A program made the position numbers and the translations under genes. Under the pieces are notes generated by a model. That model did not search any database, was not told the origin of the DNA, and saw only the letters and a list, made by a program, of their open reading frames with translations. Shown here piece after piece: positions 11,247 to 63,034 of a DNA stretch of 64,000 bases (position 1 is the first letter of the stretch; every line of letters begins with the position of its first letter). Origin of the DNA: a virus (Duplodnaviria > Heunggongvirae > Uroviricota > Caudoviricetes); IMG/VR virus record IMGVR_UViG_3300033463_000048, positions 39,434-103,433 of that record; one strand, written 5' to 3'.

Positions 11247-13109
11247 TTACTCCCTTATAGTTGAAAAATCAATTTTATTCATTATAAATTCTTTACGTGG
11301 TTCTACATTTTCACCCATCAAATCATAAAGAAGATTAATTGCTTCTTCATTCCATTCCATAGTTTCCAATCTTTGATATTGTGGACTAAACATAGAAGTT
11401 CTAACCTGTTCTGGCTCTAAAGAACCAAGACCCTTATTACGTTGAATATGTCCTTTTATAGTTGGACGTGCAGCATCCATTTCTTCATCTGTAAAATAAT
11501 AGCTTTCTTTCCCATTATGTTCTACAATATATAATGGAGAACGAAGCCAACATAAACGCCCTTCTTTAATAAATTCAGGCGCAAGGAATTGAAGAGCGGC
11601 CATAATTAAAAGACCAATATGATAACCATCTGCATCGGCATCAGTACATATTGCCAATTTTCCATAGCGCAATTTCTTGGAGTCATATTTTCCGGGAATA
11701 ATGTTCATTGCACTGAGAATAAGTTTAATTTCTTCATTTTCAAAAATTCTTTCTTCAGAATTTGAAAGGCAATTAATTATTTTACCTCTTAAAGCAAGAA
11801 GTCCAAATTTTTTATAATCGCGCCCTTGAGCAACACCGCCCAAAGCAGAATCACCTTCTTGAAGAAGAAGGATAGAATTTTCTCCTAAGAACTCAGCGTC
11901 TTTTAATTTATCAGATGCAAAAACTTTCTTCTTTTGATTTTTTTCTACTTCTTTTACCGCACCCAATACTTGTTGGCGCGCCTTTTCTGCTGCGGCTTCT
12001 GCTTTAGCAATTTTCTTCATTAATTCTACAATAGAATTAAATTCATCTGCGTGTCTAATTTTCATTTGCTTTAATGCATCAGAAAAAGCATTAGACGCGA
12101 GAGTGCGAAGATTTGCATTATTAATTTTCGATTTAGTTTGATTTGCAAAGGAAGGTTGCCCAACAGAACAGTTTATTACATAGAACATGCCCTTGCGGAT
12201 ACTATCCCCATCAAATTCAGATTTAGCAAGATTATTAAAAGTTCTTGTAATTGCGTTCTTTGCGCCCGTCACTGGTGTACCACCTTCGGGACAACGTAAA
12301 CCATTTACAAATACATATGATTGTTCGCGCCCATCAGACCATTGAAAGGCAATTTCAACTTTGTCTCCACTTTCATCTTGCGCGCTACCGGTTACAATAT
12401 GCTTATGTAATGGCTTTTGAATATTGTCTTTTACAAAATCTTGAATACCATTCTTAGAACAAAATGATTTCTTCTTTTTACCATCTTCTATTACTTCAAA
12501 AGTAATCCCGGTATAAAGATAAGAAATTGCTTTAATGTCTTCACAAATTTTGTCATAAGAATAAGTTATATCGCCATTCTTAAAAACTTTGGCGTCGGGC
12601 GCAAACGAGATATAAGTTCCATTCTTTTCTGAAGTTTTAAACTCTTTATAATCTTTAAGATTACCTTCTTCAAAATCTGCTTGCGCGCAAACTCCATCAC
12701 GATAGGATTTTACGGTAAACTTAGTAGAACTTAAACACACACACTTTGCGCCGATACCATTTAAGCCTGATACATTCTTATATACATGATCATCAAACTT
12801 ACCACCTGTATGGGATTTAGAATAGATAGAAACCAATACATTCTCTCCATCTTCTCTAATACCAAAAGGTACTCCACGTCCATAGTCACGTACAGTAATA
12901 GTATTGGTTTTTGTATCAAGGTCAATAGAAATTTTATCTCCATAACCGGCAATTGCTTCGTCAGTAGAGTTATTAATAATTTCCTTAAGTGCTTGATAGG
13001 CTCCATCACTATCATCCGATCCAAGATACATCTGGATACGGGTACGGACACCTGTACGGAAGTCTAATGATTTAATGTCATCAATTCCATAATTTTCCAT
13101 TAAACTCAT
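11247..13109 (-). CDS. gyrB: type II DNA topoisomerase subunit B (GyrB-like GHKL ATPase plus TOPRIM)
   Basis: GHKL motifs (IINNSTDEA, GLNGIGAK), TOPRIM EGDSALG, 620 aa immediately upstream of subunit A. Confidence 0.85.
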   Translation of the reverse strand: MSLMENYGIDDIKSLDFRTGVRTRIQMYLGSDDSDGAYQALKEIINNSTDEAIAGYGDKISIDLDTKTNTITVRDYGRGVPFGIREDGENVLVSIYSKSHTGGKFDDHVYKNVSGLNGIGAKCVCLSSTKFTVKSYRDGVCAQADFEEGNLKDYKEFKTSEKNGTYISFAPDAKVFKNGDITYSYDKICEDIKAISYLYTGITFEVIEDGKKKKSFCSKNGIQDFVKDNIQKPLHKHIVTGSAQDESGDKVEIAFQWSDGREQSYVFVNGLRCPEGGTPVTGAKNAITRTFNNLAKSEFDGDSIRKGMFYVINCSVGQPSFANQTKSKINNANLRTLASNAFSDALKQMKIRHADEFNSIVELMKKIAKAEAAAEKARQQVLGAVKEVEKNQKKKVFASDKLKDAEFLGENSILLLQEGDSALGGVAQGRDYKKFGLLALRGKIINCLSNSEERIFENEEIKLILSAMNIIPGKYDSKKLRYGKLAICTDADADGYHIGLLIMAALQFLAPEFIKEGRLCWLRSPLYIVEHNGKESYYFTDEEMDAARPTIKGHIQRNKGLGSLEPEQVRTSMFSPQYQRLETMEWNEEAINLLYDLMGENVEPRKEFIMNKIDFSTIRE

Positions 13110-13125
13110 ACTCCTTCTATTTTAT

Positions 13126-13188
13126 ATATAAATTATACAATAATTTTGTTTAAAAATCAAATTTAGGCATCATTTATTGATGCCTAAA
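13126..13188 (-). promoter_or_regulatory. terminator hairpin (ttaggcatca...tgatgcctaa) followed by conserved promoter (minus orientation) upstream of gyrB-like gene
   Basis: attata 13132-37, aatcaa 13155-60, 17-bp spacer; hairpin 13163-13188. Confidence 0.65.
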
Positions 13189-13901
13189 GCTTTTTCAGTA
13201 TTTTCTTTAAATTTAATGTGTAATAATCCCGCAGATGGATCCCACGGTTTTGGATATATACAATGAACTATGGTTAATGGAATTTTTTCTACCTCACTTT
13301 GTCTATCAGTTAAACGAGAACAATTATAACAATGATTAATAAATTTTATTTTCCCCTTACAGATTGTATTAATAGCATCTTGGTCTGGGAATTTTAATTT
13401 TTTGGTTTGAAGTAAATTACATAATTTTAAATCAATATGATCTCTACGCATAGCACGCAAATTAAGAAGTAAAACACCACTATTTATATAATTTTCTTTT
13501 GTATGAATTCCAGTTTCTGCTTCTTTTACTCCACACATATAATTTTCTTCAAAATCAGTATTCCATAAATTTTTTATTTTATTATAAAAGAAAACGTCTA
13601 AATCAAGATAAAGTATTTTATCTTCAAGTAAAATTTGAGAAACATAACAACGAGTAAAAGACATATACGTCCAAGCATTATCTTTATTTGGTCCATCTTT
13701 TATATATTTTGGAAAATTATTTATATTAACTAATCTAACTCTTTTATCTAAAGGGTATGGAAATTCATCATCTTCTATAAAAAGATAAATACGATATACT
13801 TCTGGATTAGTTTTAACCAAATTATATATAATACCTGGCGCATATTCATATAAGTTTCTTGTAATGGAAAACATTACGGTTATATCATTATTACCATCCA
13901 T
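13170..13901 (-). CDS. family 8 glycosyltransferase (LgtC/galactosyl- or glucosyltransferase-like)
   Basis: DLDVFF (DxD), NSGVLLLNL and HCxxPKPW motifs typical of GT8. Confidence 0.7.
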   Translation of the reverse strand: MDGNNDITVMFSITRNLYEYAPGIIYNLVKTNPEVYRIYLFIEDDEFPYPLDKRVRLVNINNFPKYIKDGPNKDNAWTYMSFTRCYVSQILLEDKILYLDLDVFFYNKIKNLWNTDFEENYMCGVKEAETGIHTKENYINSGVLLLNLRAMRRDHIDLKLCNLLQTKKLKFPDQDAINTICKGKIKFINHCYNCSRLTDRQSEVEKIPLTIVHCIYPKPWDPSAGLLHIKFKENTEKALGINK

Positions 13902-14964
13902 ACATTTCTTTCTCCCGTTTAGTTTTCTTTGGCATATTTGTCCAAACTAACAAATCACGTGCTCTTGTGGCTGCTACATAACTTAAGCACTTTTCTTCAG
14001 TATTATACATACGCGCCCCAACCACAATTACGTTCTTTCGCTCTAAGCCTTTCGCGCTATGAATTGTGAGGATTTTAACTGTGTTGTCTTCCATTTTTTC
14101 TCGAAGTTGTTCTGTGGTTAATTCGTTTCTTTTAAGTATATCGTATGGAAGTCCAACATCTTTAAATTTTCGTGCCACTTCATCAATTTGCGCATTAGTA
14201 CGAGTAAGAACAAACCAATCACGATATTCGTCTGTACTCTTTCTAATTCCTTTTACAATTTTACTTAAGTCATAAGTCATATCATAAACTTTACCGATAT
14301 TATCTCGCGCGGGATAAGATGTGTCCATATAATCTAATCCGGCAAGATTGATAATACGTTTTGCAAAATTTAATATCGCGCGACTATTACGGAAATTTTT
14401 GGTTAGGTCGTAGGTTTTTATTTTGGGGTCTTTTGCTAAGTCAAGGAGTATGTCAGGTCGGCTACCGCGGAACGTATAAATACTTTGACGCCAATCGCCC
14501 ACCATCATCCATTTCTTTGGCTTAATATAGTCAAGGATAACCTTAAACTGCATATCTGTAGAATCTTGCGCCTCATCAAGAAATAGATAATCCACTTCTC
14601 TAATACAATGAAGATTCTTACTAATTAAGTTAAACAAATCATCAAACTTTTCTTCTGATATAATAAAAGAAGTATCAATTCCATTTGAAGTTAAAAGAGA
14701 ATTAACATAAGAATGGATAGTTCCTACAAACATTCCATCTTTATAATCTTCCCCAAGGCGTGCACGTAGAACTTCTGCGGCGTTATTTGTGAAAGTAAAA
14801 ACTACAATTCGCACGGGATTGGTATCTGGCATTTGAAGTACTTTTCTAACCTTTTCAGTTAAAGTTTCTGTTTTTCCACTTGCGGCTGTAGCATTTACTA
14901 CAATAAAATCTTCTGTTGAATTGATAACTGCTTGCTGTTCTTCTGTAAAATCTTTATATTCCAT
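13891..14964 (-). CDS. compact UvrD/PcrA-like SF1 helicase
   Basis: Motif I VVNATAASGKT, motif VI-like LTIHSAKGLERKNVIVVGA; 357 aa. Confidence 0.6.
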   Translation of the reverse strand: MEYKDFTEEQQAVINSTEDFIVVNATAASGKTETLTEKVRKVLQMPDTNPVRIVVFTFTNNAAEVLRARLGEDYKDGMFVGTIHSYVNSLLTSNGIDTSFIISEEKFDDLFNLISKNLHCIREVDYLFLDEAQDSTDMQFKVILDYIKPKKWMMVGDWRQSIYTFRGSRPDILLDLAKDPKIKTYDLTKNFRNSRAILNFAKRIINLAGLDYMDTSYPARDNIGKVYDMTYDLSKIVKGIRKSTDEYRDWFVLTRTNAQIDEVARKFKDVGLPYDILKRNELTTEQLREKMEDNTVKILTIHSAKGLERKNVIVVGARMYNTEEKCLSYVAATRARDLLVWTNMPKKTKREKEMYGW

Positions 14965-16052
14965 TAATTTTCCTCTTCTACTTGATATTCTATAAGTTTT
15001 CTTTTTTGAGAATTAGAATACCTAAAATATCTATTATGAGTATGCTTCTTTTTTCCATCGCAAACTTTTTTGATGTCATTATAAGAAAAACCCAATTCTT
15101 TTTCTGCTTGTGTGGAAGATTTATATTTTTTAATAATACTACCATTTTCATCTATTTCTTCTATTTCACAACATTGAGAAGATAAAAGATATTTTTCATA
15201 TCGTTCTTCAAAACTATCTATTCCATTAAGTCTAAACCAAATATACCCTCCAGCGGTAATTTGATTACCTAATGCTGCGGCTTTTATACTACTAACATCT
15301 ATTTTTAATTGTTTTGATGCTTCACCAGCACTTTTCCAATTCTTAACAAAATTACCCTCTAAGTCATATTGACAGAGTATTTTTGTTATTGTTTTATTAT
15401 TTTTAACATCTTCTATTATTTTATTTATATTTTGTTCATCTTTCTTATAAATCCATATATAACCACATCCATAATGATGTGAAGGAATAAGTTTAGGCAA
15501 ATCTAAACCAGTTTCTTTTTTTGCTTGAGCGTAATTTTCATATATTCCAATTAAGTCTCCATTAAAGGTATATTGTAGCACTGTTCGCGGTTGACAATAT
15601 AATTCCAAAGACTTAACTCTTTTTAGAATACAGCTACGAGATGCGCCTAAAAGATTAGCAACCACAGGAACAGATTTTAATTCTTTATATGCTTCTATAA
15701 TTTCTTCATCAGAGAATTTTTGATGACCGCTACCACCACTTGAGATATTATATCCTATTTCCTTATTTGTTGAATTATATAAATCAATATAATATATTTC
15801 TTTATCATTTAATTCTTCATTTTTTACTCTTTCTAGTATTTCTCTTTTAAAATTTTTTTTACCATATTTTTTAATAGCATTACATAAAGCAGGACAATCA
15901 TTATTTGGATTATTATAAGCCCAAAAAATATGTTGCTGCCATCTTATGGGTTCTGGTACAATAGTTTGACCTATATATATTTTATTATTAATTAAATTTG
16001 TAATTTTATAAATTACTCCCATATTATCCTCCAGACTTAATATTATATCCAT
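14964..16052 (-). CDS. GIY-YIG homing endonuclease
   Basis: GVIYKITNLINNKIYIGQT ... YNISSGG GIY-YIG core; C-terminal DNA-binding repeats. Confidence 0.8.
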   Translation of the reverse strand: MDIILSLEDNMGVIYKITNLINNKIYIGQTIVPEPIRWQQHIFWAYNNPNNDCPALCNAIKKYGKKNFKREILERVKNEELNDKEIYYIDLYNSTNKEIGYNISSGGSGHQKFSDEEIIEAYKELKSVPVVANLLGASRSCILKRVKSLELYCQPRTVLQYTFNGDLIGIYENYAQAKKETGLDLPKLIPSHHYGCGYIWIYKKDEQNINKIIEDVKNNKTITKILCQYDLEGNFVKNWKSAGEASKQLKIDVSSIKAAALGNQITAGGYIWFRLNGIDSFEERYEKYLLSSQCCEIEEIDENGSIIKKYKSSTQAEKELGFSYNDIKKVCDGKKKHTHNRYFRYSNSQKRKLIEYQVEEEN

Positions 16053-17070
16053 AGATATCTGATTTATAAAAATCTATATAAAATTTTTCTCTTTCACCTA
16101 GATTTTTATCTAATGGAACTTCTTCTAATATTGTAAAAGTAAAATTATCCCAATTACTAAATAATGCTTTATGGATATTTGTTCTACTTATTGTTCCAAT
16201 ATTAAGTGAGGTTTTTATGTGCTCAGTCCATCTTTTTGTGATTTCTGCTTTAGTTTTACCTATATAAATTTCTCCACTTTTTTCATTTTTAATCATATAT
16301 ATAACATTTTTGGGATCTTTATTTCCTAAAGTTCTTTTCAGCATATTTTTAAAAGGTTGTTGAATATATTCTGTCCATATTATTTTATAAATGGTTTCTT
16401 TATTATTAAAATGATTTAATATAGAAACCAAATAGTTTATATCTGCTTTTGCTTCATCGGATAAACAAACTCTATAGAAATCTTGATTTTCAGAAATTTC
16501 ACGTTGACGTAGAATTTCCTTATTTATAACTTCGCGTTTTTGACGATAGTCTTCAACTTCTGTTTTAAGAGAAGAAAGTTCGAGATTCGCCCTCTCGATT
16601 TCTTCTCTATGCTTTTCCAAGAACTCTTCTAATTCTTCGCTTGACTCAGATTTAAGTTGTGAGAGTATAGAATCAAGTTGAGATTTATAAGAAGTATAAT
16701 TGGAATTATAGTAGTTTTGAAGAGTAAGGTCAATATTGTCTTTTTTAATTTGGAGTTGATTTTGAAGTTGAGCTTCAATTTCTTGCGCGCTTTCACGCTT
16801 AGATTCCAAAGTTTTTTCAATGCCGCGCAGATTAGATTTAGCAACTTCAGCATTTGCAATGGCCACGTCTGCGAGATTTTTGGCTTGGGTAAGTCTTTCT
16901 TCCTCTTTCCGCTCCAAGGACGAAATTTCCCATAATCTATTTTTATAAGATTCTTCTAATTTTTTATTTAATTCTATATAACTATCTTTAGAAAGTTTAT
17001 TTACTTTCTTTTTAAAGTAAATTATATAAATTAATAAACCTATAATTAAAGTAATTAAAAAATAATACAT
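16024..17070 (-). CDS. membrane-anchored coiled-coil protein with C-terminal GIY-YIG nuclease domain
   Basis: N-terminal TM helix LITLIIGLLIYIIYF, long Glu/Lys/Leu-rich heptad region, C-terminal VIYMIKNEKSGEIYIGKT...YNIKSGG. Confidence 0.6.
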   Translation of the reverse strand: MYYFLITLIIGLLIYIIYFKKKVNKLSKDSYIELNKKLEESYKNRLWEISSLERKEEERLTQAKNLADVAIANAEVAKSNLRGIEKTLESKRESAQEIEAQLQNQLQIKKDNIDLTLQNYYNSNYTSYKSQLDSILSQLKSESSEELEEFLEKHREEIERANLELSSLKTEVEDYRQKREVINKEILRQREISENQDFYRVCLSDEAKADINYLVSILNHFNNKETIYKIIWTEYIQQPFKNMLKRTLGNKDPKNVIYMIKNEKSGEIYIGKTKAEITKRWTEHIKTSLNIGTISRTNIHKALFSNWDNFTFTILEEVPLDKNLGEREKFYIDFYKSDIYGYNIKSGG

Positions 17071-17078
17071 ATAAATTA

Positions 17079-17125
17079 CCCTCCCTTATATAGTAATTAT
17101 ACCATAAATAAGAGAGGGTGTCAAA
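17079..17125 (-). promoter_or_regulatory. promoter (TTGACA-17-TATAAT, minus strand) whose -10 lies in the loop of an 10-bp hairpin
   Basis: ccctccctta 17079-88 / taagagaggg 17109-18; attata 17096-17101; tgtcaa 17119-24. Confidence 0.55.
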
Positions 17126-17129
17126 TTTT

Positions 17130-17645
17130 TCAATTTATAAAAAGCTCTTCATCATCCGATACAACTTCCCAATCAACGGTGCGTAAATACATTCGTTCTA
17201 TTCTTCCATTACCGTCTTCGTTTTTATAATCAATATATAACTTATCTAAAATTTCCCTATCTGTTTCCGGAATTTTTCTTATCTTCTTATATTTACTATA
17301 AATACGCTCTATATCAGTACGAAGTAAATCGCGGTTACTTGCATTTAATAAATTAATTTTATGATCGATTCCACCGATAATTTCTTTAAATTCCATATCT
17401 GCGTCATGAAGTTTTGTAAATTCTGGCTGTAATGCGTTCTTTACATCTTCAATTATGGTTTTTCGTAGTTTTTTATTTTCATCTTCCTTCTTTTTCTTAA
17501 TACGTTTACCAAAGAATAGAGTAACCCCTTTCATTCCACCAAGGATCACTCCAACTGCTGCCACAATAGAAGAAACGTAAATTAAAAAATCTACGATATT
17601 AAATACGAATAAAAATGATAACATTCTGTTGCGCCTCCCACACAC
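17130..17645 (-). CDS. small membrane protein (one TM, basic and acidic C-terminal region)
   Basis: Hydrophobic segment LSFLFVFNIVDFLIYVSSIVAAVGVIL; function unknown. Confidence 0.4.
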   Translation of the reverse strand: MCGRRNRMLSFLFVFNIVDFLIYVSSIVAAVGVILGGMKGVTLFFGKRIKKKKEDENKKLRKTIIEDVKNALQPEFTKLHDADMEFKEIIGGIDHKINLLNASNRDLLRTDIERIYSKYKKIRKIPETDREILDKLYIDYKNEDGNGRIERMYLRTVDWEVVSDDEELFIN

Positions 17646-17749
17646 GCTTTCTAACTAAAAGTGGAAGAATTATAAAGGGACTCAAAAAAGGTGATAGTCG
17701 AAGTAATTTTTTTACTTTATAAAAGAAGAAAGGACTTAAGGAGGCTTTT

Positions 17750-18067
17750 ATGGTTTGGATTAAGGATAAAGAAAATGAAATTCATTTTACAAGAGGAGAT
17801 AGCGGAAATTTCTCTGTAAGTTTATTTAATAAAGATGGAAGCGCATGTACGATGGGCGCAAATGATACAATTATTTTTTCTATGAGAAATGACCAAATGG
17901 TTGTGTTGACCAAAACTTTTACTACAAATCAAATTATAATTAACCCAAGTGATACAAAAAAACTCGCCTGTCAGCCTTATAGATATGAAGTTGAATTACA
18001 TAGTGGAAATAATGTATATACTGTAATTGCTTGGTCACTTTTTATTTTGGAAAGAGAGGTTTTATAA
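17750..18067 (+). CDS. hypothetical protein (first gene of plus-strand structural block)
   Basis: RBS aaggagg upstream; 105 aa. Confidence 0.45.
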   Translation: MVWIKDKENEIHFTRGDSGNFSVSLFNKDGSACTMGANDTIIFSMRNDQMVVLTKTFTTNQIIINPSDTKKLACQPYRYEVELHSGNNVYTVIAWSLFILEREVL

Positions 18068-18247
18068 TGGATTTGATGCCGGGGATTATGGACTTGAGTC
18101 GTCCTAATTATAAAGATAGTGAAATATATGGGAAAATTAAAATAGATAACTATGTAGTTGGCGCGCTCACCATAAACTCTTTGGTTACGGCAACCATAAA
18201 TACTGTAAATTATGTTGAGGGCGCAGTACACGTAGAGGGAGTAAATA

Positions 18248-18604
18248 ATGAATGAGGGATATATTTTAAGAGGAACTACTCCTCATTTAACAATTAAACT
18301 TAAACCTCAAGACCTCACAGTCGATCAAATAGATGCGCTTGAATGGTGTTTTAAACAAGGAAAGATAATTTTAAAGAAAGGATTAAATGACTGTATTGTT
18401 GATACGGAATTAAATACAGTTACATATCATTTCTTAGAGTCTGAAACCCTTATGTTTGGTACAGATTCAAGCGTGAAATTCCAACTTAGATTTAAAGTTG
18501 GAAATGAGTTAATTGGTACGAAGGAAGCAAAACTTACCTTTACTGAACTTTTGAGTAATTCTGAGTTTGAGGATGAAGGAAATGTTGAACAACCTGGAAC
18601 TTAA
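18248..18604 (+). CDS. hypothetical virion-associated protein
   Basis: ORF with RBS ggaggg; overlaps neighbours. Confidence 0.45.
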   Translation: MNEGYILRGTTPHLTIKLKPQDLTVDQIDALEWCFKQGKIILKKGLNDCIVDTELNTVTYHFLESETLMFGTDSSVKFQLRFKVGNELIGTKEAKLTFTELLSNSEFEDEGNVEQPGT

Positions 18605-29456: not shown

Positions 29457-29490
29457 AAGGCATCAGATTTATTTCTGATGCCTTTTCCAA
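29457..29490. terminator. bidirectional rho-independent terminator
   Basis: aaaggcatcaga-tttat-ttctgatgcctttt between convergent genes. Confidence 0.75.
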
Positions 29491-29867
29491 TCTTCATCGT
29501 TCTTCCATTTACTTCGCGCCAAAAACTTATTCTGAAATAAGTCTTCCGCACAATTTATATCTTCAATTTCCCAATAGGGAATACAGTAAATATAAATCTT
29601 ATTCGCTAAACAATAAGAAATTTTTCTCCTATCTCGTTCTTGCGCCTTATGAAATTCGGTCCGGTTTTTGAAATAGATAGGTATCTGTTGGTAATGTTGG
29701 GCGCCGTTGAACTCGAGGATTGAATTTCTACTTGGGATATAGAAATCAAACCTATACTTTCCTCCACGTAAATCCTCAAACGTCTTTTCGCGCTCAAACT
29801 TAATTCCTTTTTTATTTAATAAATCTGCAACTTTTTCTTCGCCTTTACTCATAATTATCCACCTCAC
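29469..29867 (-). CDS. PD-(D/E)XK-like (DUF559/Vsr-like) endonuclease inserted opposite to the structural operon
   Basis: GIKFEREK...YRFDFYIP...ILEFNGAQHY resembles the restriction-endonuclease-like fold. Confidence 0.45.
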   Translation of the reverse strand: MRWIIMSKGEEKVADLLNKKGIKFEREKTFEDLRGGKYRFDFYIPSRNSILEFNGAQHYQQIPIYFKNRTEFHKAQERDRRKISYCLANKIYIYCIPYWEIEDINCAEDLFQNKFLARSKWKNDEDWKRHQK

Positions 29868-32498: not shown

Positions 32499-33599
32499 TT
32501 ACTCTAATACCTGCGCCCAATCACATTCTCTAGGCGTCTTATCATCACGGAACCTAATAAGGCGGGGGTGGCGAATATGATGAGATACCTTATCAATCTG
32601 CATACCACCAACTTCTACAACCTTACCTTTATACGCTTCAGGGTTAGCTAAAACTTCTTCAGTAAGTCCGCTCAAATCACCAAAATAAACTGGCTGTCCA
32701 TCCTTTACCAGTCCAAGTTTAAGCGATCCCGCCCAACCATTATAAAAGTTCTTTGTAACTGGCACAATCGGTTCACCACGCATATAATCTTGGTAGTAAA
32801 CACCCTCAGGTAGATTCTCTTCTTTAATATTATCATACCAATAAGTCCACAACTCAATAGATTTTCCTTGATAAAGTTTAGAAGCAGGATTATACCCCAT
32901 GATAAAGCAATCAATAGTTTGTTTAAGTTCTTGCTTTACCTTAATACTTACTCGCGCGGGAGTACGCTTATCATATACGATAGCGTCATTGCGCATAATA
33001 ACCATTCCTTCGCGCCCACTAGCAAGATATTCTTGAAGTTTGTCCCATAATTCTTCACCCTCATAAAATTCTGCATAGTGAATATATTCACTAGAATATT
33101 TCTTCATTTGGTTAATATAATTTTGACGTTCTTTGTATGGAGTTTTATTTAGATTTTTCCCTTCAAAAGCCATACAATCAAAGATATGAAAATGAAGTGG
33201 GGTTTTCTTTTGACGTTCTATTGCTTTTTCTTTAAGGCAACCAAGAATACTAGTAACATTTTTACTACCCTCTGCATCTGGAATATAAACTTCTGCAAGA
33301 ACACAAGTTCCATTTGGGAGAATACCCATCCATTCTTTAAGCTGCGGCACCCAATCAATTTTATCCACAACTTCCCCGTTTACATTTCGTGAGCGCGCGA
33401 TCATAAAACAATTGCCATCTTCATCCTTAAGGATGCGTTGATAAAATCCATCTACTTTTAAACTCCCACTATATTCTCCTGAAAAAATAGCATTTTTTAC
33501 AGTTTCTTTTCTAATATTTTCAGAAGTAGAAGCGGGAAAACTCCAATATTTCATTGGAGAAATATTAAGCCAATCAATTTTATTAATATAACCTTTCAT
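32499..33599 (-). CDS. ATP-dependent DNA (or RNA) ligase
   Basis: Adenylation motif I SLKVDGF (KxDG), OB-fold-like C-terminal region. Confidence 0.65.
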   Translation of the reverse strand: MKGYINKIDWLNISPMKYWSFPASTSENIRKETVKNAIFSGEYSGSLKVDGFYQRILKDEDGNCFMIARSRNVNGEVVDKIDWVPQLKEWMGILPNGTCVLAEVYIPDAEGSKNVTSILGCLKEKAIERQKKTPLHFHIFDCMAFEGKNLNKTPYKERQNYINQMKKYSSEYIHYAEFYEGEELWDKLQEYLASGREGMVIMRNDAIVYDKRTPARVSIKVKQELKQTIDCFIMGYNPASKLYQGKSIELWTYWYDNIKEENLPEGVYYQDYMRGEPIVPVTKNFYNGWAGSLKLGLVKDGQPVYFGDLSGLTEEVLANPEAYKGKVVEVGGMQIDKVSHHIRHPRLIRFRDDKTPRECDWAQVLE

Positions 33600-34420
33600 T
33601 CAATATATCTCCATTCGTATCCATTACAAGTTTTTCTTTTACCTTTACACACTTTTGAAATACTGCTAGGATCTGTTTTAGTTTCTTCACCGGCTTGTTT
33701 TATTGTGTTATATTCTTTTATCAGTTTTCCATTTTTGTATTGTCCTACTTTTCTTAATGGACATTGTTTTAATTTTCTTTTTTGAGGAAGTTCATCTCCT
33801 TCTCTTATCCAAAAGAAACCTTTATATCCATTTTTAGTATTACAAGCAGTTTTTATACTATCCTTATTAAAACCAGTAATATAACTTGCTTCCTTTAAAG
33901 AAGAATAAGAGTTTACTAATTCTAATTCTTCTGTATATTGTAATACTCTTGATTCACTTTGCTTTATCCCGCTGTGTAAAAATCCTCTATCAATAATTTC
34001 TTCTTTATCATAAAGTCCTAATTCTTTCAACACATCTACAACAGATGAATACCACACCCCAAGTTCTTCTGATATTTGACGGACTGATTGTCCTTCTAGA
34101 TATTTAGTAGCAACTTCTTCTCTTTGTATCCATTTTCGGCCATCTCCTCCAATGGTGGTATTGTATCCATTTTTAATTGTGTCTAATTCTTTAATCCAAT
34201 AGATTTCTCTTTCATTAAGAATTTCATCAGAAACATTCTCTTCTAAAGGAATTATAGAAAAATGTTCTAAACCATATTTATTCATCGCTCGATATAAATG
34301 AGTATCGCTCTTCTTTGAAGCATAAATATGTTTACTCCAACGCGAAGCTAAAGTTTCAACAGTTTTCCCAATATAAATTTTTGAATTAAGATCATTTATA
34401 ATTTTATAAATAGTTCCCAT
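33596..34420 (-). CDS. GIY-YIG homing endonuclease
   Basis: GTIYKIINDLNSKIYIGKT ... YNTTIGGDG; C-terminal HTH-like repeats. Confidence 0.8.
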   Translation of the reverse strand: MGTIYKIINDLNSKIYIGKTVETLASRWSKHIYASKKSDTHLYRAMNKYGLEHFSIIPLEENVSDEILNEREIYWIKELDTIKNGYNTTIGGDGRKWIQREEVATKYLEGQSVRQISEELGVWYSSVVDVLKELGLYDKEEIIDRGFLHSGIKQSESRVLQYTEELELVNSYSSLKEASYITGFNKDSIKTACNTKNGYKGFFWIREGDELPQKRKLKQCPLRKVGQYKNGKLIKEYNTIKQAGEETKTDPSSISKVCKGKRKTCNGYEWRYIE

Positions 34421-34508: not shown

Positions 34509-35045
34509 TTAATTTTCTTTTTCTTTCAAATTTAAAGTCTCAAGGAAGAACTCTGCGGTTTCCTTTAACTCATCAATCGTTCCGTCATTTAAAATCCAAT
34601 AATCATAAGTATAATCAAAGACTTCTTCATCTGCATGATTGGAAGTTTCTTTTTCTTCTGCTTCTTTTCTGGATACAAATATAGTTGTCGCGCTGAATAC
34701 GTCTTTAAGTTTCTCAAGTTCCTTTGGTTCTCTTACACAAATAAATAATGCGCAATCATCTATAACTCCTTCAGATGCAAGTACGTCTTCCCAAAGTCCT
34801 TTTTCATATTCCAACTCTTTAAGAGGAACGTCTCTCCACTCGGTAAGTAAATCTTTCATGTCAGAAAGAAACTTTCTGTCCTTTGGAGTTTTCTCTCCAT
34901 TCCAACCACAATAAAATGCAATTTTCTTTACAAAATCAATTGATGAAATGCTATGTGCGCGAACACCCAAGATATCTTTACAATAATTAATAAATGTGTC
35001 TTTACCAGCGGTTGCACAGCCATTAACCAAAATTACTTTTATCAT
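34509..35045 (-). CDS. deoxynucleoside monophosphate kinase-like P-loop kinase
   Basis: MIKVILVNGCATAGKDTF resembles the T4 gp1 dNMP kinase N-terminus. Confidence 0.55.
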   Translation of the reverse strand: MIKVILVNGCATAGKDTFINYCKDILGVRAHSISSIDFVKKIAFYCGWNGEKTPKDRKFLSDMKDLLTEWRDVPLKELEYEKGLWEDVLASEGVIDDCALFICVREPKELEKLKDVFSATTIFVSRKEAEEKETSNHADEEVFDYTYDYWILNDGTIDELKETAEFFLETLNLKEKEN

Positions 35046-36000
35046 ATTCTACTCCTAGTTCATTAAGCCACTCTAAAAAAGTTTGTGGAAATACATAAAT
35101 TTTCTTATCTATTGATTTAAATTGGTGTATTTTATCAGAAAGTTCTTCCCAAAATTTAGGACTATTTATTGCTTTTTTTATTGCTGGAATCGAAAAAAAA
35201 TCTTTTAAAAGACGGATTATTTCTTCAGGAATTTCGAATCCGCGTGCTAATGCTGTTTGGAAATATCCGTATGAATGAAAACCATATCCTGCCAGTTTAT
35301 ATACATTTATTCCCTTTTCGTTAAGAAAAATAACTGCTTTGCATACAGCAGTAATATAATCTAGTCCTAAAATACCATTACGTGCAGTGCCTGTTGCTCT
35401 AGTTAAAGAATTATTTTCATCTCTCCAAAGATATAATGGATCCTCTAAATATTTTACATTAGAAGTAAGTCCCATACACTTGATTAAGAAACAAATATCT
35501 TCATTACCTCTAAGCCCTTCTTCAAATCTTATATCATTATTTCTAAGAAAAGAAGTTTTAAAAATTTTTCCATGAAGCCAAATCCTGGCACTAGTTTTAG
35601 GATGAATAAGTTGATCTGCGCTTTTCTTTGATTCTACAGCAATTGTAGACATTACTATGTCAGTATTTAAGTCACGAGTAATTTCATAACTTAATTTTTT
35701 TATTGTATTAGGCATCAGCATATCATCTGAATCAAGAAAAGTTACATAATCTATATTAGATCTATAACATATATCTAACCCATATTGGCGCGCCATGCCT
35801 GGACCGCTATTCTTTTCCATTCTAAAGCATTTAATATGTAATTTATCTACGTATTCATCACATATTTCACATAAATCAATATCACTACAATCATCAATTA
35901 CAATTGTGAAAAAACGTTTGTTTGTTTGATTAACCAAAGAGTCAAGAGCCTCTCTTAACTGATCTGGTCGGTTATAAGCTGGAATTATAACTGCTAACAT
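35023..36000 (-). CDS. family 2 glycosyltransferase (GT-A fold)
   Basis: IIPAYNRPDQLREALDSL...IDDCSD and DSDD motifs. Confidence 0.75.
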   Translation of the reverse strand: MLAVIIPAYNRPDQLREALDSLVNQTNKRFFTIVIDDCSDIDLCEICDEYVDKLHIKCFRMEKNSGPGMARQYGLDICYRSNIDYVTFLDSDDMLMPNTIKKLSYEITRDLNTDIVMSTIAVESKKSADQLIHPKTSARIWLHGKIFKTSFLRNNDIRFEEGLRGNEDICFLIKCMGLTSNVKYLEDPLYLWRDENNSLTRATGTARNGILGLDYITAVCKAVIFLNEKGINVYKLAGYGFHSYGYFQTALARGFEIPEEIIRLLKDFFSIPAIKKAINSPKFWEELSDKIHQFKSIDKKIYVFPQTFLEWLNELGVEYDKSNFG

Positions 36001-40164: not shown

Positions 40165-40236
40165 AGGGGTATAGCACAATGGTTAGTGCACCAGGCTTTG
40201 ACCCTGGGGATGCGGGTTCGATCCCCACTACCCTTG
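40165..40236 (+). tRNA. tRNA-Gln (anticodon TTG)
   Basis: Acceptor AGGGGTA/TACCCTT (one G-U), D-arm GCAC-AATGGTTA-GTGC, anticodon arm CCAGG-CTTTGAC-CCTGG, T-loop TTCGATC. Confidence 0.65.
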
Positions 40237-40266
40237 CTTAAGATTATTAAAAGGAGAAATAAAAAA

Positions 40267-42013: not shown

Positions 42014-43630
42014 ATGATAAATTATTTCGGCTATCTTGAAGTGGAACTTAATGATGAGGACTTTGCAACACTACAAGGAGGAAGCACACCTGAGTCTTTG
42101 GGAGAGTTAAAAGAGAACCAATATATTATTGCTAAAGACCGGTTTGGGAGAGTTGAATATTTTCAGTTTAAGAATAGTAAAGTAGAAAGAATTTTATATA
42201 CTGAATTAGGGAATGATTTTACAGGTAAAATTAAACCATTAAACGACCAACAAGTTTGCGCCTTTCATATGTTAAGAGATAAGGACGTTCCGGTGAAACT
42301 TATAACTGGTAAGTTTGGTACCGGTAAGGCGCAACCAATAGATACAGTAATCCCTACCCCAATGGGTATGAAGAGACTTGGGGATATAAAAGTTGGAGAT
42401 TATGTGTTCGCGCGTGATGGACGTAAAACGAAAGTTTTAGGTATATTTCCTCAAGGAGTTCTTACTAATTATAGAGTAGAACTTAGCGACGGGCGCGTTG
42501 TATTTTGTAATGATGAACATATTTGGACTTGCGTGGATAAAGATGGAAATTTTTTTGATACTACAATTAAAGAAATTATAAGTTCTTATATGTTATATGA
42601 GGGAGAATATTATAGAATCCCTTGGAACGAAGCAGTTAAATATGAAGCAGTTATAGACGAAAGGGATTTTTATAAGGAAGGACATTACATCTCTTGTGAA
42701 ATTCCTAAAGAATTTATGACCGCGCCGATTGATCAAAGAATGCGTCTTTTAGCTGGAATTATTGATTCTAAAGGACTTATCAAGGCACGCCGCTTATATT
42801 TAAGACTTAAGGACTTTAATCTTATTAGGGATATGTATTCTTTCTTAATGGGATTAGGAATTTACGCATATAATGATGATACTGTAATTGAAGATAACTT
42901 AACTGCGGAAATTCATTTATGTTTAAACGAAAAGCAAATAAGTGAAATTTCTCCTTATCTTTATATGTTTGAATTAGAGAGACAAATCGATCCCGAGGAG
43001 AAACCTGCACTAGAAATCACCGATATATATACTGTTGGTGAAGCAGAAATGGTATGTATTTTGGTTGATAATCCAGAGCATTTATATTTGACTAATGATT
43101 ATATTGTAACTCATAATACAATGGCAAATATTGTTGCCGCGCTGGAAGCGGTTCAAAAGGGTGAGTTTGAGAAGATTATATTTATTAGAAATAATGTACA
43201 AGTGGCTGGGACAGATCCCATTGGCGCACTTCCAGGAGACGAACATGATAAACTTCTTCCGTATTTAATGCCTTTTGCAGACCATTGCGGTGGTATAGAA
43301 GGTATTCAAAGATTAATAGAAGAAGAAAAACTTGAAGTAATTCCTCTTGCTTTTTTAAGAGGTCGTAGTATTAGAAATGCTATTCTTTATTCAATGGAAT
43401 CAGAAAATTTAACTAAAGAACATATTCAATTAATTTTAGGAAGAGTAGATAAGGGTTCTCAGTTATGGATGGATGGAGATATTAAGCAAAGAGATAAGGC
43501 TATATTTGAAAAGTCTCAAGGACTTGAAATTATGATTGAAAGACTGGCGGGGAATCCTTTATTTGGCTATGTAAATTTAGTTAAGTCAGAACGTTCACCA
43601 ATAGCCGCACTTAGCGATCTACTTGATTAA
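42014..43630 (+). CDS. phoH: PhoH-like ATPase interrupted by an intein
   Basis: The 105-aa N-extein ends GKFGTGK; the C-extein TMANIVAALEAVQKGEFEKIIFIRNN...LPGDEHDKLLPYLMPFADH is a PhoH core. Removing residues 106-368 restores the Walker A motif GTGKT. Confidence 0.8.
   Translation: MINYFGYLEVELNDEDFATLQGGSTPESLGELKENQYIIAKDRFGRVEYFQFKNSKVERILYTELGNDFTGKIKPLNDQQVCAFHMLRDKDVPVKLITGKFGTGKAQPIDTVIPTPMGMKRLGDIKVGDYVFARDGRKTKVLGIFPQGVLTNYRVELSDGRVVFCNDEHIWTCVDKDGNFFDTTIKEIISSYMLYEGEYYRIPWNEAVKYEAVIDERDFYKEGHYISCEIPKEFMTAPIDQRMRLLAGIIDSKGLIKARRLYLRLKDFNLIRDMYSFLMGLGIYAYNDDTVIEDNLTAEIHLCLNEKQISEISPYLYMFELERQIDPEEKPALEITDIYTVGEAEMVCILVDNPEHLYLTNDYIVTHNTMANIVAALEAVQKGEFEKIIFIRNNVQVAGTDPIGALPGDEHDKLLPYLMPFADHCGGIEGIQRLIEEEKLEVIPLAFLRGRSIRNAILYSMESENLTKEHIQLILGRVDKGSQLWMDGDIKQRDKAIFEKSQGLEIMIERLAGNPLFGYVNLVKSERSPIAALSDLLD
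42329..43117 (+). mobile_element. intein (263 aa) with LAGLIDADG homing-endonuclease domain; Ala1, C-terminal HN, +1 Thr
   Basis: Block A AQPIDTVI, block B NDEHIWT, LAGLIDADG-like MRLLAGIIDSKG, C-terminal YIVTHN followed by T. Confidence 0.75.
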
Positions 43631-44435
43631 GGTATTAAAAATGACAAATATTTATAAGATAACAAATATTGTTAATGGTAATATTTATATTGGAAAAACA
43701 ATTAACAATATTAATGACCGTTGGAAAGAACATATTTACTCTGCGATATCAAAAGATAAAGATGGTAATTGTCCTCTTCATTGTGCTATTAGAAAATATG
43801 GAAAAGAAAATTTTTTAATAGAATTAATTGATAGGTGCGAGGATTTTGATAGTTCAAATAAGGAAAAGTATTGGATAAAATACTATGATTCTTATAATAA
43901 TGGATATAATGCTACTTTGGGTGGGGATGGAAATCCATTATATGATAGAGAATATATCAAAAAATTATGGGACGATGGGCTGTCTAATAAAGAAATTAGA
44001 GAAATTATTGGTTGTGATAAGAAAGTAATAAGAAAGACTCTTTATTCTTATGGCATAACAAAAGAAGAGCTTTATAAAAGAAGAGGGAAGAATATAGAGA
44101 AAGATATAGATAAAGATTATTTAAAAGAGTTATGGGATGAAGAGCTAACTCTAACCCAAATTGCCGAAATTTTTAATGTTGAACAAAAAACTATTATGCG
44201 AAGATTAGAAAAAATTGGTATTGACTCTAATCAACGACATAATAGATATTATGATTCACTTTTAAAGGTTCATTGGTCTGTTATTTTAAATTTGTATAAA
44301 GAAGGAAAAACTATTTCAGAAATTCGAAAAATAACGGGCTGTGGATTTAATTCTATAGAAAAAACAATAATCAGGCATCGAGACTATTTAAAAGATAAAA
44401 ATGAAGTCAGGACTATGGCTGATTTGCTTGATTAA
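43623..44435 (+). CDS. GIY-YIG homing endonuclease
   Basis: NIYKITNIVNGNIYIGKT ... YNATLGGDG; repeated HTH-like modules. Confidence 0.8.
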   Translation: MIKVLKMTNIYKITNIVNGNIYIGKTINNINDRWKEHIYSAISKDKDGNCPLHCAIRKYGKENFLIELIDRCEDFDSSNKEKYWIKYYDSYNNGYNATLGGDGNPLYDREYIKKLWDDGLSNKEIREIIGCDKKVIRKTLYSYGITKEELYKRRGKNIEKDIDKDYLKELWDEELTLTQIAEIFNVEQKTIMRRLEKIGIDSNQRHNRYYDSLLKVHWSVILNLYKEGKTISEIRKITGCGFNSIEKTIIRHRDYLKDKNEVRTMADLLD

Positions 44436-53180: not shown

Positions 53181-54161
53181 ATGATTTTTTCAATTGTTGG
53201 ACTTATTATTGCTGTTGTTGGATTTTTCTTGCTTAATGAAGTTACAGAATCAATCGCAACGCGCCTTTTGGCATCAGTTCTGACTCTCGTTGTCTTTGTA
53301 ATTCTTGGGTGTATTACTTCTGTTCCTACCGGTAACACTGGTGTAGTTGTTACCTTCGGACATGTAGAAGATTACACTCTAGATTCTGGTATCCATTTTG
53401 TTGCACCTTGGCAGACAGTAAAGAAAATGGATAATAAGACGCAGATTTATAATGTAGAGTTATCTTGCTTTTCTTCCGACATTCAGGAAGTAACTATTAA
53501 GTATGCAGTAAACTATAGTATTGATAAGCAGAATGCGCAGATTATTTATAAGACAATTGGTGAAAACTATGTTGCTACTGTAATGGAGCCAAAGGTTCAA
53601 GAAGCAGTAAAGGGTATTATTGCAAAATATACTGCTGAGCAGTTGATTGGTATTCGTGCGAACTTGTCTACTCAGGTAGAAGAAATTCTCACTGCGTCTT
53701 TGGCAAATTATTATATTAATGTAGTATCTACTTCCCTTAGCGACATTGATTTTACCGATGCCTTCACTGATGCTGTAGAAAAGAAACAGGTGGCAGAACA
53801 GAATAAGTTGCGCGCTAAGACTGAGCAGGAACAGGCAATTATCGAGGCTAATGCGTCTGCAGAGAAGCAGGTAATTAAGGCGCAGGCAGATGCTGATGCG
53901 GCGATTATCGCGGCAGAGGCTGATAAGAAGGTACAGCAGATTAATGCTGATGCGGCTGAGTATGCGGGACAGAAGGAAGCTGCGATTTTGAGTAATATTG
54001 GTGAGCAGTTGACGAAGTATCCGGGATTGCGCGAGTATTATTACTTCCAGGCTTGGGATGGGAAACTTCCTATTACTATGCTTGGTGGAGATACAAGTGT
54101 AATTATGGATGGATTAGTTAATTCTGAAAACAATGTTGAAATTGAAAAGGGCGTAGAGTAA
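53181..54161 (+). CDS. SPFH/band-7 (prohibitin/HflK-C-like) membrane protein
   Basis: N-terminal TM(s), then SPFH-like core and long Ala/Gln/Glu coiled coil. Confidence 0.55.
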   Translation: MIFSIVGLIIAVVGFFLLNEVTESIATRLLASVLTLVVFVILGCITSVPTGNTGVVVTFGHVEDYTLDSGIHFVAPWQTVKKMDNKTQIYNVELSCFSSDIQEVTIKYAVNYSIDKQNAQIIYKTIGENYVATVMEPKVQEAVKGIIAKYTAEQLIGIRANLSTQVEEILTASLANYYINVVSTSLSDIDFTDAFTDAVEKKQVAEQNKLRAKTEQEQAIIEANASAEKQVIKAQADADAAIIAAEADKKVQQINADAAEYAGQKEAAILSNIGEQLTKYPGLREYYYFQAWDGKLPITMLGGDTSVIMDGLVNSENNVEIEKGVE

Positions 54162-58850: not shown

Positions 58851-59161
58851 ATTTTGAGAACCAACTTCAAATTATTCTTTCAAAACATATTCTCGTTTTT
58901 ACACCCGACTATCACGTTGTAGTATATAGTTGGCGCGCCATGCAAGAATTAGCGGAATACTTCAAAACTTACCAAAGCGCGCACACAGATTTTCTATATA
59001 CCTCTATGGCGCAGTCTACTGCGCCTGGGGATTATGCTGGCGCGGATGCGTGGGGCGCATTTAGTTGGGTAGATAATGGTGAAATTAAAATGTTTGGATT
59101 AAATTTTATGCAGGAAGCGCAGGAAAATAGATTTAAGCAATTTAATTCCACTTCTAATTGA
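58841..59161 (+). CDS. hypothetical protein
   Basis: 106 aa; last ORF before long non-coding region. Confidence 0.4.
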   Translation: MMSDFENQLQIILSKHILVFTPDYHVVVYSWRAMQELAEYFKTYQSAHTDFLYTSMAQSTAPGDYAGADAWGAFSWVDNGEIKMFGLNFMQEAQENRFKQFNSTSN

Positions 59162-59303
59162 ACTCATTAGTTTACGGAAAACCGCGAACTAATGGGTTCG
59201 CGAGATAAGTTCAACTCTTATATGAGTTATTGGTTTGACTTTATTTGACTCCTTTCTTTAGTTGTACCTCTTTCTTACAGCGCGGACGAGAGTTCGCGCA
59301 CCT

Positions 59304-59381
59304 GGGGGTAAGAATGGTTTCGACTACGCTTAAACCCAAAGTGGACTGCGTAGGACGCGGGATCGTAACCCGCTACCTCCA
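59304..59381 (+). ncRNA. non-canonical tRNA-like element (candidate tRNA mimic/Y-RNA-like module)
   Basis: Acceptor-like GGGGGTA/TACCTCC plus discriminator A. T-arm GCGGG-ATCGTAA-CCCGC. Internal CTACGC-18 nt-GCGTAG stem instead of a canonical anticodon arm. Lies within an ORF-free GC-rich segment. Confidence 0.4.
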
Positions 59382-59571
59382 CTCAGGAAGACCATCCCAT
59401 CGCGGCGTATGATCTTCTACCGTTATCATGAATTTCGAGTACTTAAACTACCACCGGCACTCAACTTAGGCGTCCTTGAGATATGCGAGTCAGTGATATG
59501 TGGCATTTAGTGGGGAACGGTATATAAGAACGCAAAGTAAAGTACTCCTCTCTTTGAGAGAATTAAAATTT

Positions 59572-59616
59572 TAAAATTTGAAAAAGTTTTAAAATTTTGG
59601 TATAATTTTTATAGAA
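59572..59616 (+). promoter_or_regulatory. conserved promoter-family member
   Basis: ttgaaa 59578-83, tataat 59601-06, spacer 17, then TTTTATAGAAAGTTGAGAGAG. Confidence 0.65.
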
Positions 59617-59655
59617 AGTTGAGAGAGAAATCTCACTTTATATTACAACAATATC

Positions 59656-59725
59656 GCGGAGTAGAGGAGAGGAACCTTGCTAGGCCCATAACCTAGAGAC
59701 GCGAGTTCGAATCTCGCCTTCCGCA
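59656..59725 (+). tRNA. tRNA-Met/Ile2-like (anticodon CAT) with short D-arm
   Basis: T-arm GCGAG-TTCGAAT-CTCGC, anticodon arm CTAGG-CCCATAA-CCTAG, acceptor GCGGAGT/CTTCCGC with one mismatch. Confidence 0.5.
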
Positions 59726-59729
59726 ATCA

Positions 59730-60110
59730 AAGGTGCACACAGCAAACTTTTTAAACAAGCATATGATTAGGGATCATATCCTCCACAATAGGATAAGCGA
59801 AGTTGGCGCCTTGTATTTTTAACTTAAAAGCACTTACTGCAATTTTAAAACCGCCGAAAGGCTCCACAGATTAAAGATGAAAATGCAACTTTAGTGGCAT
59901 CCTGCCATAAACTTAAAAAAGTGCTTTGGAATTTTTAAAACTTAAAAGCTCACCCAGCAAACTTAAATTGGGATAATAAAACAACATTGTGAACGCTGTT
60001 TTTAAGTGGTTCAAGTCCACTATAAAGAGCTTTGTAAATTGAAAAGAAACTTAAACGCCCTTTCTGCAATCTTAAAAAATAGCTTAAAGGTAAAGCAATT
60101 CACTTGTAAT
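59730..60110 (+). repeat. array of degenerate 30-45-nt repeats (AACTTAAAAGC..C(A/T)GCAAAC/CTGCAAT.. units) with embedded tRNA-arm-like hairpins
   Basis: Units gcacacagcaaac, gcacttactgcaat, gctcacccagcaaac, gccctttctgcaat each preceded by aactt-aaaag. T-arm-like GTGGTTCAAGTCCAC at ~60005. No ORF of 60 aa or longer on either strand. Confidence 0.5.
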
Positions 60111-60160
60111 GAATATATGCGGTTCGAATCCGTTTTTGGGCGTTGTATTTTTACTAAACT
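60063..60160 (+). other. degenerate tRNA-like sequence (anticodon-arm ATTCA-CTTGTAA-TGAAT; T-loop GCGG-TTCGAAT-CCGT)
   Basis: Imperfect acceptor pairing; probably a decayed tRNA or tRNA-like RNA. Confidence 0.3.
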
Positions 60161-60175
60161 TAAAGGAGAATTCTT

Positions 60176-61765: not shown

Positions 61766-61787
61766 AACCTAAACGCCTTTTTCTTTT
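61751..61787 (+). terminator. rho-independent terminator overlapping the stop codon and abutting tRNA-Asp
   Basis: aaggcgtttag-ttaaaac-ctaaacgcctt followed by tttcttttg. Confidence 0.75.
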
Positions 61788-61859
61788 GGTTCTATGGTAT
61801 AACGGTTAGAATGTCGCGCTGTCAACGCGGAGACGGGAGTTCAACTCTCCCTAGAACCG
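61788..61859 (+). tRNA. tRNA-Asp (GTC)
   Basis: Acceptor GGTTCTA/TAGAACC, anticodon loop CTGTCAA, T-arm GGGAG-TTCAACT-CTCCC. Confidence 0.8.
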
Positions 61860-61864
61860 TCTAT

Positions 61865-61937: not shown

Positions 61938-61945
61938 TTTAATAT

Positions 61946-62025: not shown

Positions 62026-62035
62026 CTTATAAAAT

Positions 62036-62816: not shown

Positions 62817-62821
62817 TAAAT

Positions 62822-63029: not shown

Positions 63030-63034
63030 CTTAT

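Follow-up and report, generated by a model that had tools for sequence, protein, structure and literature searches.

A conserved GIY-YIG nuclease family of gut and rumen phages, with a predicted membrane anchor and a UvrD-like helicase gene as its neighbour

On the minus strand of a tailed phage (Caudoviricetes) genome fragment, two genes for GIY-YIG nucleases follow each other directly, and the first of them, gene A, appears to encode a membrane anchor and a long helical stalk in front of its nuclease domain. The fragment is the stretch of 64,000 nucleotides (nt) at positions 39,434 to 103,433 of the IMG/VR record IMGVR_UViG_3300033463_000048, hereafter referred to as the window. A nuclease of this build raises the question of what a phage would gain from holding it at the membrane, and whether the second gene, B, takes part in that role. 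A first-pass annotation, made from the sequence, had described the two as tandem open reading frames (ORFs) spanning 14964..17070, and our ORF list agrees with it. As described below, A belongs to a large and conserved phage family, its usual neighbour is a UvrD-like helicase gene, H, located downstream of B in the window, and the distribution of B fits a mobile gene.

Anatomy and family of the gene A product

The ORF of gene A is free of in-frame stops up to its TAA at 16026..16024, and an identical protein has been called on independent assemblies. A distortion of A or B of the window by an alternative genetic code was rejected, because neither ORF contains in-frame stops. An AlphaFold2 (AF2) model built on 54 homologues, with a mean predicted local distance difference test (pLDDT) score of 88.9, divides the protein into four parts: a helix of residues 2-23, a helix of residues 28-194, a small helical domain of residues 196-248 and an alpha/beta domain of residues 255-348. 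The coordinates of these and the other features are collected in Table 1.

The N-terminus of A is hydrophobic, with a Kyte-Doolittle 19-residue maximum of 2.28 at residue 1, which agrees with the first AF2 helix; the N-terminal transmembrane (TM) segment proposed in the first-pass annotation is thus retained as a prediction. Across 114 homologues, the mean number of lysines plus arginines (K+R) is 0.13 before the TM segment, where the flank averages 1 residue, versus 5.3 in the 15 amino acids (aa) after it. By the positive-inside rule this bias places the C-terminus in the cytoplasm, and A is accordingly predicted to be a reverse signal anchor protein (N-out/C-in) with its nuclease in the cytoplasm.

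The second helix, of 167 residues, contains no proline and one glycine, and its hydrophobicity shows a periodicity of 3.5-3.6 residues at a level reached by at most 0.1% of 2000 shuffled sequences. The stalk is probably a coiled coil through which A would dimerise. The "~200-aa heptad-rich region" described previously is therefore present as a heptad-periodic helix, but it consists in fact of a stalk of about 167 aa followed by a conserved helical domain of 55 aa. Pfam matches within the stalk (DUF4446, DUF948, DUF4407, ECH_2 and others) were weak and were discarded as low-complexity or coiled-coil noise. The small helical domain matched nothing in Pfam or the PDB, and residues 1-254 as a whole gave no PDB sequence match at E<=10.

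The only real Pfam domain of A is GIY-YIG (residues 255-340, E=3.2e-11). Residues Y258 (in VIY258), Y269 and G271 (in Y269-I-G271), R280, H284, E328 and N343 are invariant across the 54 homologues. With its motifs and catalytic residues, its significant profile match and its GIY-YIG fold, A can be assigned to the GIY-YIG superfamily, and the retained catalytic arginine (R280) and glutamate (E328) bear out the C-terminal nuclease domain that had been proposed. This domain is nearest to the cleavage domains of the I-TevI type, not to those of SLX1 or UvrC, and T4 endonuclease II (EndoII) is a structural relative. PHROG 314, labelled "homing endonuclease", spans residues 203-348, and the TIGR01453 profile gave 51.2 bits, under its cutoff of 56.05. 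Pfam scans found no NUMOD, HTH or Zn-finger DNA-binding module in A or in the 54 homologues, and no DUF4041, T5orf172 or other further domain in 54 members of the family. The view that A is atypical for a homing endonuclease therefore holds, both in this lack of a NUMOD/HTH module and in its presence in about 92% of related loci instead of sporadically. Judged by its sequence, A is a member of the GIY-YIG superfamily derived from the I-TevI branch, and not a homing endonuclease.

A search of 5.8 billion proteins with A returned 1152 matches, the best 120 of which are 269-377 aa long with bit scores of at least 240. The N-terminal TM segment is found in 114 of these 120, and the six exceptions are short and probably truncated calls. 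Conservation is high in residues 165-348 (up to 74% identity) and poor in the sequence of the stalk. When residues 150-254 only were used to search 1.84 billion cluster representatives (50% identity, E<=0.001), 430 clusters were retrieved. In the full-length proteins among the best 150 clusters, the match always lies about 95 residues from the C-terminus, and the shorter entries look like fragments. Among distant full-length representatives, the TM segment was found in 111 of 116 and the GIY-YIG motif in all 116, and a clade of 242-aa proteins keeps the TM segment with a stalk of only about 70 residues. At least 430 clusters thus share the architecture of A, which is not a one-off fusion, and the small helical domain is confined to proteins built in this way.

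The carriers of A are contigs of uncultured phages, 100-135 kb in length, from gut and rumen samples. In bacterial genomes, the patterns used, which reach close relatives only, matched two short contigs of metagenome-assembled genomes (one Bacillota, one Ruminococcus) among 185,579 species representatives, and with just these two matches a bacterial or prophage origin of A was rejected. Megablast of positions 13000..18500 against 50,697 phage records gave no match, and tblastn with A in the phage collection found GIY-YIG domains only, except for a longer match in the metagenomic phage Phass-1. In the BFVD fold search, two unnamed viral proteins showed the same overall shape as A, and the other matches were restricted to GIY-YIG domains. 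The searchable literature yielded no account of a phage-encoded membrane-tethered GIY-YIG family.

Phass-1 (OQ749652) is a TAG-recoded siphovirus for which its authors tentatively assign Clostridia hosts. Its homologue of A (L001, 5572..6552) contains 8 in-frame TAG codons and is a single gene of 326 aa when TAG is read as glutamine, although the record lists two hypothetical proteins in its place, WIC39637 and WIC39636. Present annotation therefore either labels the A family "homing endonuclease" or, as in the Phass-1 record, splits it into fragments. Recoded codons of this kind are unexpected in a gene that looks early elsewhere.

The promoter upstream of gene A is the sole 12/12 consensus match within the window, where 0.03 would be expected by chance. 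Of 111 non-redundant relatives, 74 have a promoter that matches 11-12 of the 12 positions no more than 130 nt upstream of A, compared with 12 of 555 random windows (2%).

Gene neighbours of A: the helicase gene H and the homing endonuclease gene B

The product of gene H matches the Pfam families UvrD-helicase (E=1.4e-29) and UvrD_C, and its Walker A and DExQD motifs are invariant. The gene context was examined in two samples, of 88 loci fetched through A and of 79 loci fetched independently through H. Among the 88 A-sampled loci, A is followed directly by H in 49; a B-like gene lies between them in 13 (and 4 truncated loci also carry B), and a different, Zn-ribbon/DUF559-like gene does so in 3; H lies directly upstream of A with a 7-nt spacer in 15, and a single locus has room for H yet lacks it. 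A and H are therefore neighbours, in either gene order, in 80 of the 81 A-sampled loci with room (~99%). In the H-sampled loci, A is found upstream of H in 69 of 75 with room (~92%), within about 135 nt in 60 of them, and 6 are without A. About 8% of the H loci have lost A, which indicates a useful but dispensable gene, comparable to the host-DNA and exclusion genes of T4.

In relatives lacking B, the ATG of H is often found 0-2 nt after the TAA of A, with a GGAGG from the near-invariant terminal Gly-Gly codons of A as its ribosome-binding site. A and H are thus a conserved, early-looking and frequently translationally coupled pair, which is near-core but dispensable. The true partner of A would be H, the gene downstream of B, with which it may cooperate.

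In three relatives, L002 (10110..12230), L003 and probably L121 (2876..4927), H is split by a LAGLIDADG intein-like insertion and encodes 706 instead of about 350 aa. The insertion in L121 sits directly after the Walker A motif.

Two further genes recur around the pair. A 132-aa protein with a weak DUF559/Vsr-like (PD-(D/E)xK) match is encoded in 75 of 89 loci, immediately upstream of A in the relatives examined; in the window its gene (29469..29867, minus strand) lies 12 kb from A, among tail genes. Gene U, directly upstream of the A promoter, lies in an ORF that extends over 17130..17645. It belongs to PHROG 4257/4105, families of unknown function, and shows a weak match to PADLOC LeoBC (E=8e-5). 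U recurs near A or H in about 30 relatives, at times on the opposite strand, and its membership in the A-H module is uncertain.

Gene B was previously described as a classical GIY-YIG homing endonuclease gene, and both the domain architecture of its product and its patchy distribution support this. The protein contains an N-terminal GIY-YIG domain (PF01541), NUMOD1 (PF07453), an I-HmuI NUMOD-like domain (PF22083) and HTH_50, and it scores 75.1 bits with TIGR01453, over the cutoff. The gene order given in the first-pass annotation was reversed: A is upstream, so the end of A meets the start of B. The reported overlap of 29 nt exists only for the longest ORF of B, whose ATG at 16052 lacks a ribosome-binding site. 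The ATG at 16022, by comparison, lies one base past the TAA of A, with GGAGG 5 nt ahead of it. This is also the start of B in independent gene calls, made on an identical contig as well as on relatives, which yield a protein of 352 aa, and B homologues begin with MG(Y/H/V)IYKITN. B most likely starts at 16022, and the overlap would be a longest-ORF artefact.

The initial set of four A-B-H loci suggested B as a conserved partner of A, but this proved to be a clade bias, and with wider sampling B is mostly absent. It occupies 11 of 88 distinct A|H junctions, H following A directly at the other 77; overall, B lies between A and H in about 12-20% of loci, as fits a mobile gene. L043 and L112 carry B, and the A proteins of their B-less neighbours are 92-93% identical. 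Some loci have B-like copies elsewhere. Between L002 and the window, B is 75% identical, A 58% and H 55%. B is present in the whole of the window's own clade (the window, L002, L004, L006, L008 and L011), within which it may have been inherited vertically. Its position is exactly the spot at which the stop of A is coupled to the start of H. These observations fit a separate mobile homing endonuclease gene inserted between A and H.

The tandem arrangement of A and B has no special meaning. The nuclease domain of A is 38% identical to that of B and 34-35% identical to those of the two other homing endonucleases of the window, and a special A-B relationship by duplication was rejected on these values. 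The two additional enzymes, in turn, are 30-38% identical to B and to one another. In L035 (3746..4504), L077 (594..1424) and L078 (5595..6425), the A|H junction is occupied by a gene for a protein of 252-276 aa with HTH/Zn-ribbon repeats and a DUF559-like C-terminus. Mobile endonuclease genes of several types appear to favour this junction as an insertion hotspot, and the homing endonuclease genes found there can mislead towards a functional tandem pair.

Table 1. Location of gene A, its parts, its neighbours and related genes in the window
Feature	Coordinates	Strand	Description
RecJ-like exonuclease	1335..3095		
Gene H	13891..14964	(-)	357-aa UvrD-like superfamily 1 (SF1) helicase; ATG overlaps the stop of B (TAATG)
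Gene B	14964..16022	(-)	352-aa free-standing GIY-YIG/NUMOD homing endonuclease between A and H
Gene A	16024..17070	(-)	348 aa, GIY-YIG nuclease with predicted membrane anchor and long stalk (ORF call, Pfam, homologues, AF2)
A, residues 255-348	16027..16308	(-)	GIY-YIG catalytic domain, I-TevI type
GGAGG	16028..16032	(-)	From the last Gly-Gly codons of A; ribosome-binding site for the next gene
A, residues 195-254	16309..16488	(-)	Family-specific conserved small helical domain; invariant D210, I211, I217, K229, Y235
A, residues 28-194	16489..16989	(-)	Continuous amphipathic helix, stalk (AF2); sequence and length vary across the family
A, residues 2-23	17002..17067	(-)	Predicted N-terminal TM anchor (hydropathy and AF2 helix); N-out/C-in predicted
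Ribosome-binding site of A	17079..17085	(-)	GGGAGGG, 8 nt before the ATG of A; direct sequence reading
Promoter, sigma-70/sigma-A type	17096..17124	(-)	TTGACA-17-TATAAT with TG extension, 26 nt 5' of the start codon of A
Gene U	17130..17624	(-)	164 aa from ATG 17624; N-terminal TM segment and helical; directly upstream of the A promoter
Homing endonuclease, GIY-YIG	33596..34420	(-)	274 aa, directly after the DNA ligase gene
Deoxynucleoside monophosphate (dNMP) kinase	34509..35045		
Homing endonuclease, GIY-YIG	43623..44435	(+)	270 aa, directly after the PhoH-like gene

Possible function of the A-H pair

The only characterised protein of the design of A is SNIPE (PD-lambda-1), a membrane-bound defence nuclease of bacteria (Saxton et al., Nature 2026; PMC13190303). 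It consists of a TM segment, a middle domain and a C-terminal GIY-YIG domain, and it cuts phage DNA during injection; its DUF4041 contacts tape-measure proteins and DNA, and without the TM segment it attacks the chromosome, so that the tether prevents self-cleavage (PMC13190303). A shares with SNIPE a single N-terminal TM helix and a cytoplasmic body (in A as predicted from hydropathy, charge bias and the AF2 model), an elongated helical middle, a C-terminal GIY-YIG domain as the most conserved part and an N-terminal region that is variable in length and poorly conserved. The confinement of a dangerous nuclease by tethering would be their common principle.

The differences are considerable. 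At the sequence level, DUF4041 (PF13250) was not detected in the 54 A members at E<=1, and PADLOC gave no PD-Lambda-1 match at E<=1, its matches being limited to HEase, UzuA and, weakly, LmuB/ZorA. Together with the lack of a PDB match for residues 1-254, this led us to reject A as a member of the SNIPE family. Moreover, the nuclease domain of A is of the I-TevI type, virtually none of its residues would lie in the periplasm or outside the cell, and its gene resides in large phages, apparently non-integrated ones, and is hardly ever seen in bacterial genomes. Finally, a UvrD-like helicase accompanies A in almost every case, whereas the word helicase is absent from the SNIPE paper (PMC13190303). 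A looks like an independent assembly of the SNIPE design and not like a detectable homologue.

Other proteins resemble A in part. In the I-TevI-type homing endonucleases the nuclease domain is N-terminal, whereas that of A is C-terminal; in addition, A has a TM anchor and a stalk, lacks their NUMOD/HTH/zinc-finger modules, and occurs almost universally at one fixed locus, not sporadically. T4 EndoII (DenA) differs in being small and soluble and in having no helicase partner gene, and it tells self by the modified cytosine of the phage, not by location. RmuC combines an N-terminal hydrophobic anchor and a long coiled coil with a C-terminal PD-(D/E)xK nuclease, and p16.7 of phi29, which organises phage DNA at the membrane through a C-terminal DNA-binding domain, likewise has a TM segment and a coiled coil, but no nuclease; Pfam scans of A and its homologues gave no sequence match to either.

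The existence of an analogue in SNIPE and of a structural relative in T4 EndoII adds weight to the possible roles named in the first-pass annotation, superinfection exclusion or degradation of host DNA at the membrane. With modest confidence, we propose that A and H form a nuclease-helicase module that acts early, is confined to the membrane and destroys the DNA located there. A would be transcribed early from its consensus host-type promoter and be translationally coupled to H. Its single N-terminal helix would anchor it in the cytoplasmic membrane, the remainder facing the cytoplasm, and a dimeric helical stalk of 10-25 nm would bear the small helical domain and the catalytic domain, so that the dimer would unite two GIY-YIG domains with a single active site each. 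A and H could then act together as a membrane-confined module that nicks or cuts the DNA and unwinds it. By analogy with SNIPE, the tether would limit a non-specific nuclease to DNA located at the membrane and spare the replicating DNA of the phage.

As the target, we tentatively prefer DNA entering the cell after infection has been established, which would be reeled in and shredded by A and H in a SNIPE-like superinfection exclusion. It is possible, in the same tentative sense, that large virulent phages of gut and rumen Bacillota possess an independently evolved counterpart of SNIPE that shreds later-entering DNA and distinguishes self from non-self by place and time only, without modification or sequence recognition. 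The host chromosome is the alternative target, and we rank it nearly as likely as entry exclusion, although doubtful in itself. A would then nick the chromosome, H would unwind it and the RecJ-like exonuclease of the phage would digest it, with the products feeding the dNMP kinase (Table 1).

Several points weigh against a membrane-confined destruction of DNA. A has no DUF4041 and essentially no extracytoplasmic residues, and its long rigid stalk would keep the nuclease at a distance from the membrane. Change in the conserved half of A is slow, with up to 74% identity where H shows about 45%, which better suits a housekeeping enzyme than an arms-race protein. Relatives that use TAG as a sense codon (for example L006, 6001..7044) hold several TAG codons inside A, which argues against very early translation in those phages. 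In addition, the TM and coiled-coil assignments were made from hydropathy, charge bias, periodicity and the AF2 model, the cooperation of A with H is deduced from gene linkage, and the known carriers of A do not include a cultured phage.

The strongest competitor of DNA destruction, although an unlikely one, is that the substrates of A and H are intermediates of the phage's own replication or recombination, processed at a replication site attached to the membrane. A might nick DNA to load H for rolling-circle or recombination-dependent replication, UvrD-like helicases typically loading at nicks, or resolve branched DNA before packaging, the TM segment and stalk organising replication in the manner of phi29 p16.7. 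The location of A within a block of replication genes (gyrase-like topoisomerase, DnaB, primase, RecA-like ATPase, RecJ) is consistent with such a role, as are its tight coupling to H and the conservation of its nuclease half, which changes as slowly as, or more slowly than, core replication proteins. However, its absence from about 8% of otherwise similar H loci implies that A is not essential for replication, its nuclease domain is nearest to I-TevI and not to SLX1 or UvrC, its strong consensus host-type promoter suggests immediate-early and not replication-phase expression, and no origin-like element or specific nick site was identified.

Much less probable is that A is a domesticated or decaying homing endonuclease, that is, an I-TevI-like gene that lost its DNA-binding domain and was fused to a membrane/coiled-coil gene, being either without a membrane role or selfish. 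The PHROG 314 match and the richness of the genome in GIY-YIG homing endonucleases, with three in the window, point in this direction. Neither decay nor selfish spread, however, predicts a family in which the catalytic residues are invariant in 54 sequences and the motif persists even in distant members, an architecture including the TM segment that is kept in 430 clusters, a gene that always adjoins H and is not patchy among H-sampled loci, or a conserved promoter of its own, and this explanation is largely refuted. It is similarly improbable that A and B cooperate as a GIY-YIG heterodimer in which the NUMOD modules of B read the DNA and A anchors the complex to the membrane. A and B do abut (TAA-T-ATG), which would allow co-translation, and every member of the window's own clade has B, but the 77 junctions without B, the 92-93% identity of A between loci with and without it, the other type of endonuclease in L035, L077 and L078 and the equal nearness of the A domain to the other homing endonucleases of the window all speak against such a complex. 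Least credible of all is an export signal at the hydrophobic N-terminus of A, making it an extracellular or surface nuclease that degrades, for example, extracellular DNA or biofilm matrix as a counterpart of the membrane-attached surface-exposed nucleases of Gram-positive bacteria such as EndA (PMC3025545), because A has no positive n-region, its basic cluster follows the hydrophobic core, and its partner H, an ATP-dependent helicase, needs the cytoplasm.

It was not until 2026 that a membrane-bound nuclease distinguishing self and non-self by location was described, in SNIPE, and the same design was here apparently built independently, in phage genomes, with a catalytic domain of the homing endonuclease type, at least 430 conserved clusters and a helicase partner. 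If A and H indeed exclude competitors or dismantle the host chromosome, they would represent a weapon that is widespread among abundant phages of gut and rumen yet unannotated, as well as a second, independent test of spatial self/non-self discrimination.

Other features of the window

A cluster of 15 tRNA genes predicted by ARAGORN occupies 59161..63934 and is opened by a tRNA-like gene with a four-base anticodon (aatg) at 59161..59229 (plus strand); a separate tRNA-Gln gene is located at 40165..40237 (ARAGORN). Two products are unusual as phage cargo, namely a DUF2828/DUF7788 protein encoded within the tRNA cluster (60176..61765, plus strand) and an SPFH/Band-7 membrane-scaffold protein (53181..54161, plus strand). 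Two glycosyltransferase genes, of families GT8 (13170..13901, minus strand) and GT2 (35023..36000, minus strand), are found among DNA-metabolism genes, and the GT8 gene overlaps H by 11 nt. Whether these enzymes modify DNA or the cell envelope is relevant to the means by which the phage could shield its own DNA.

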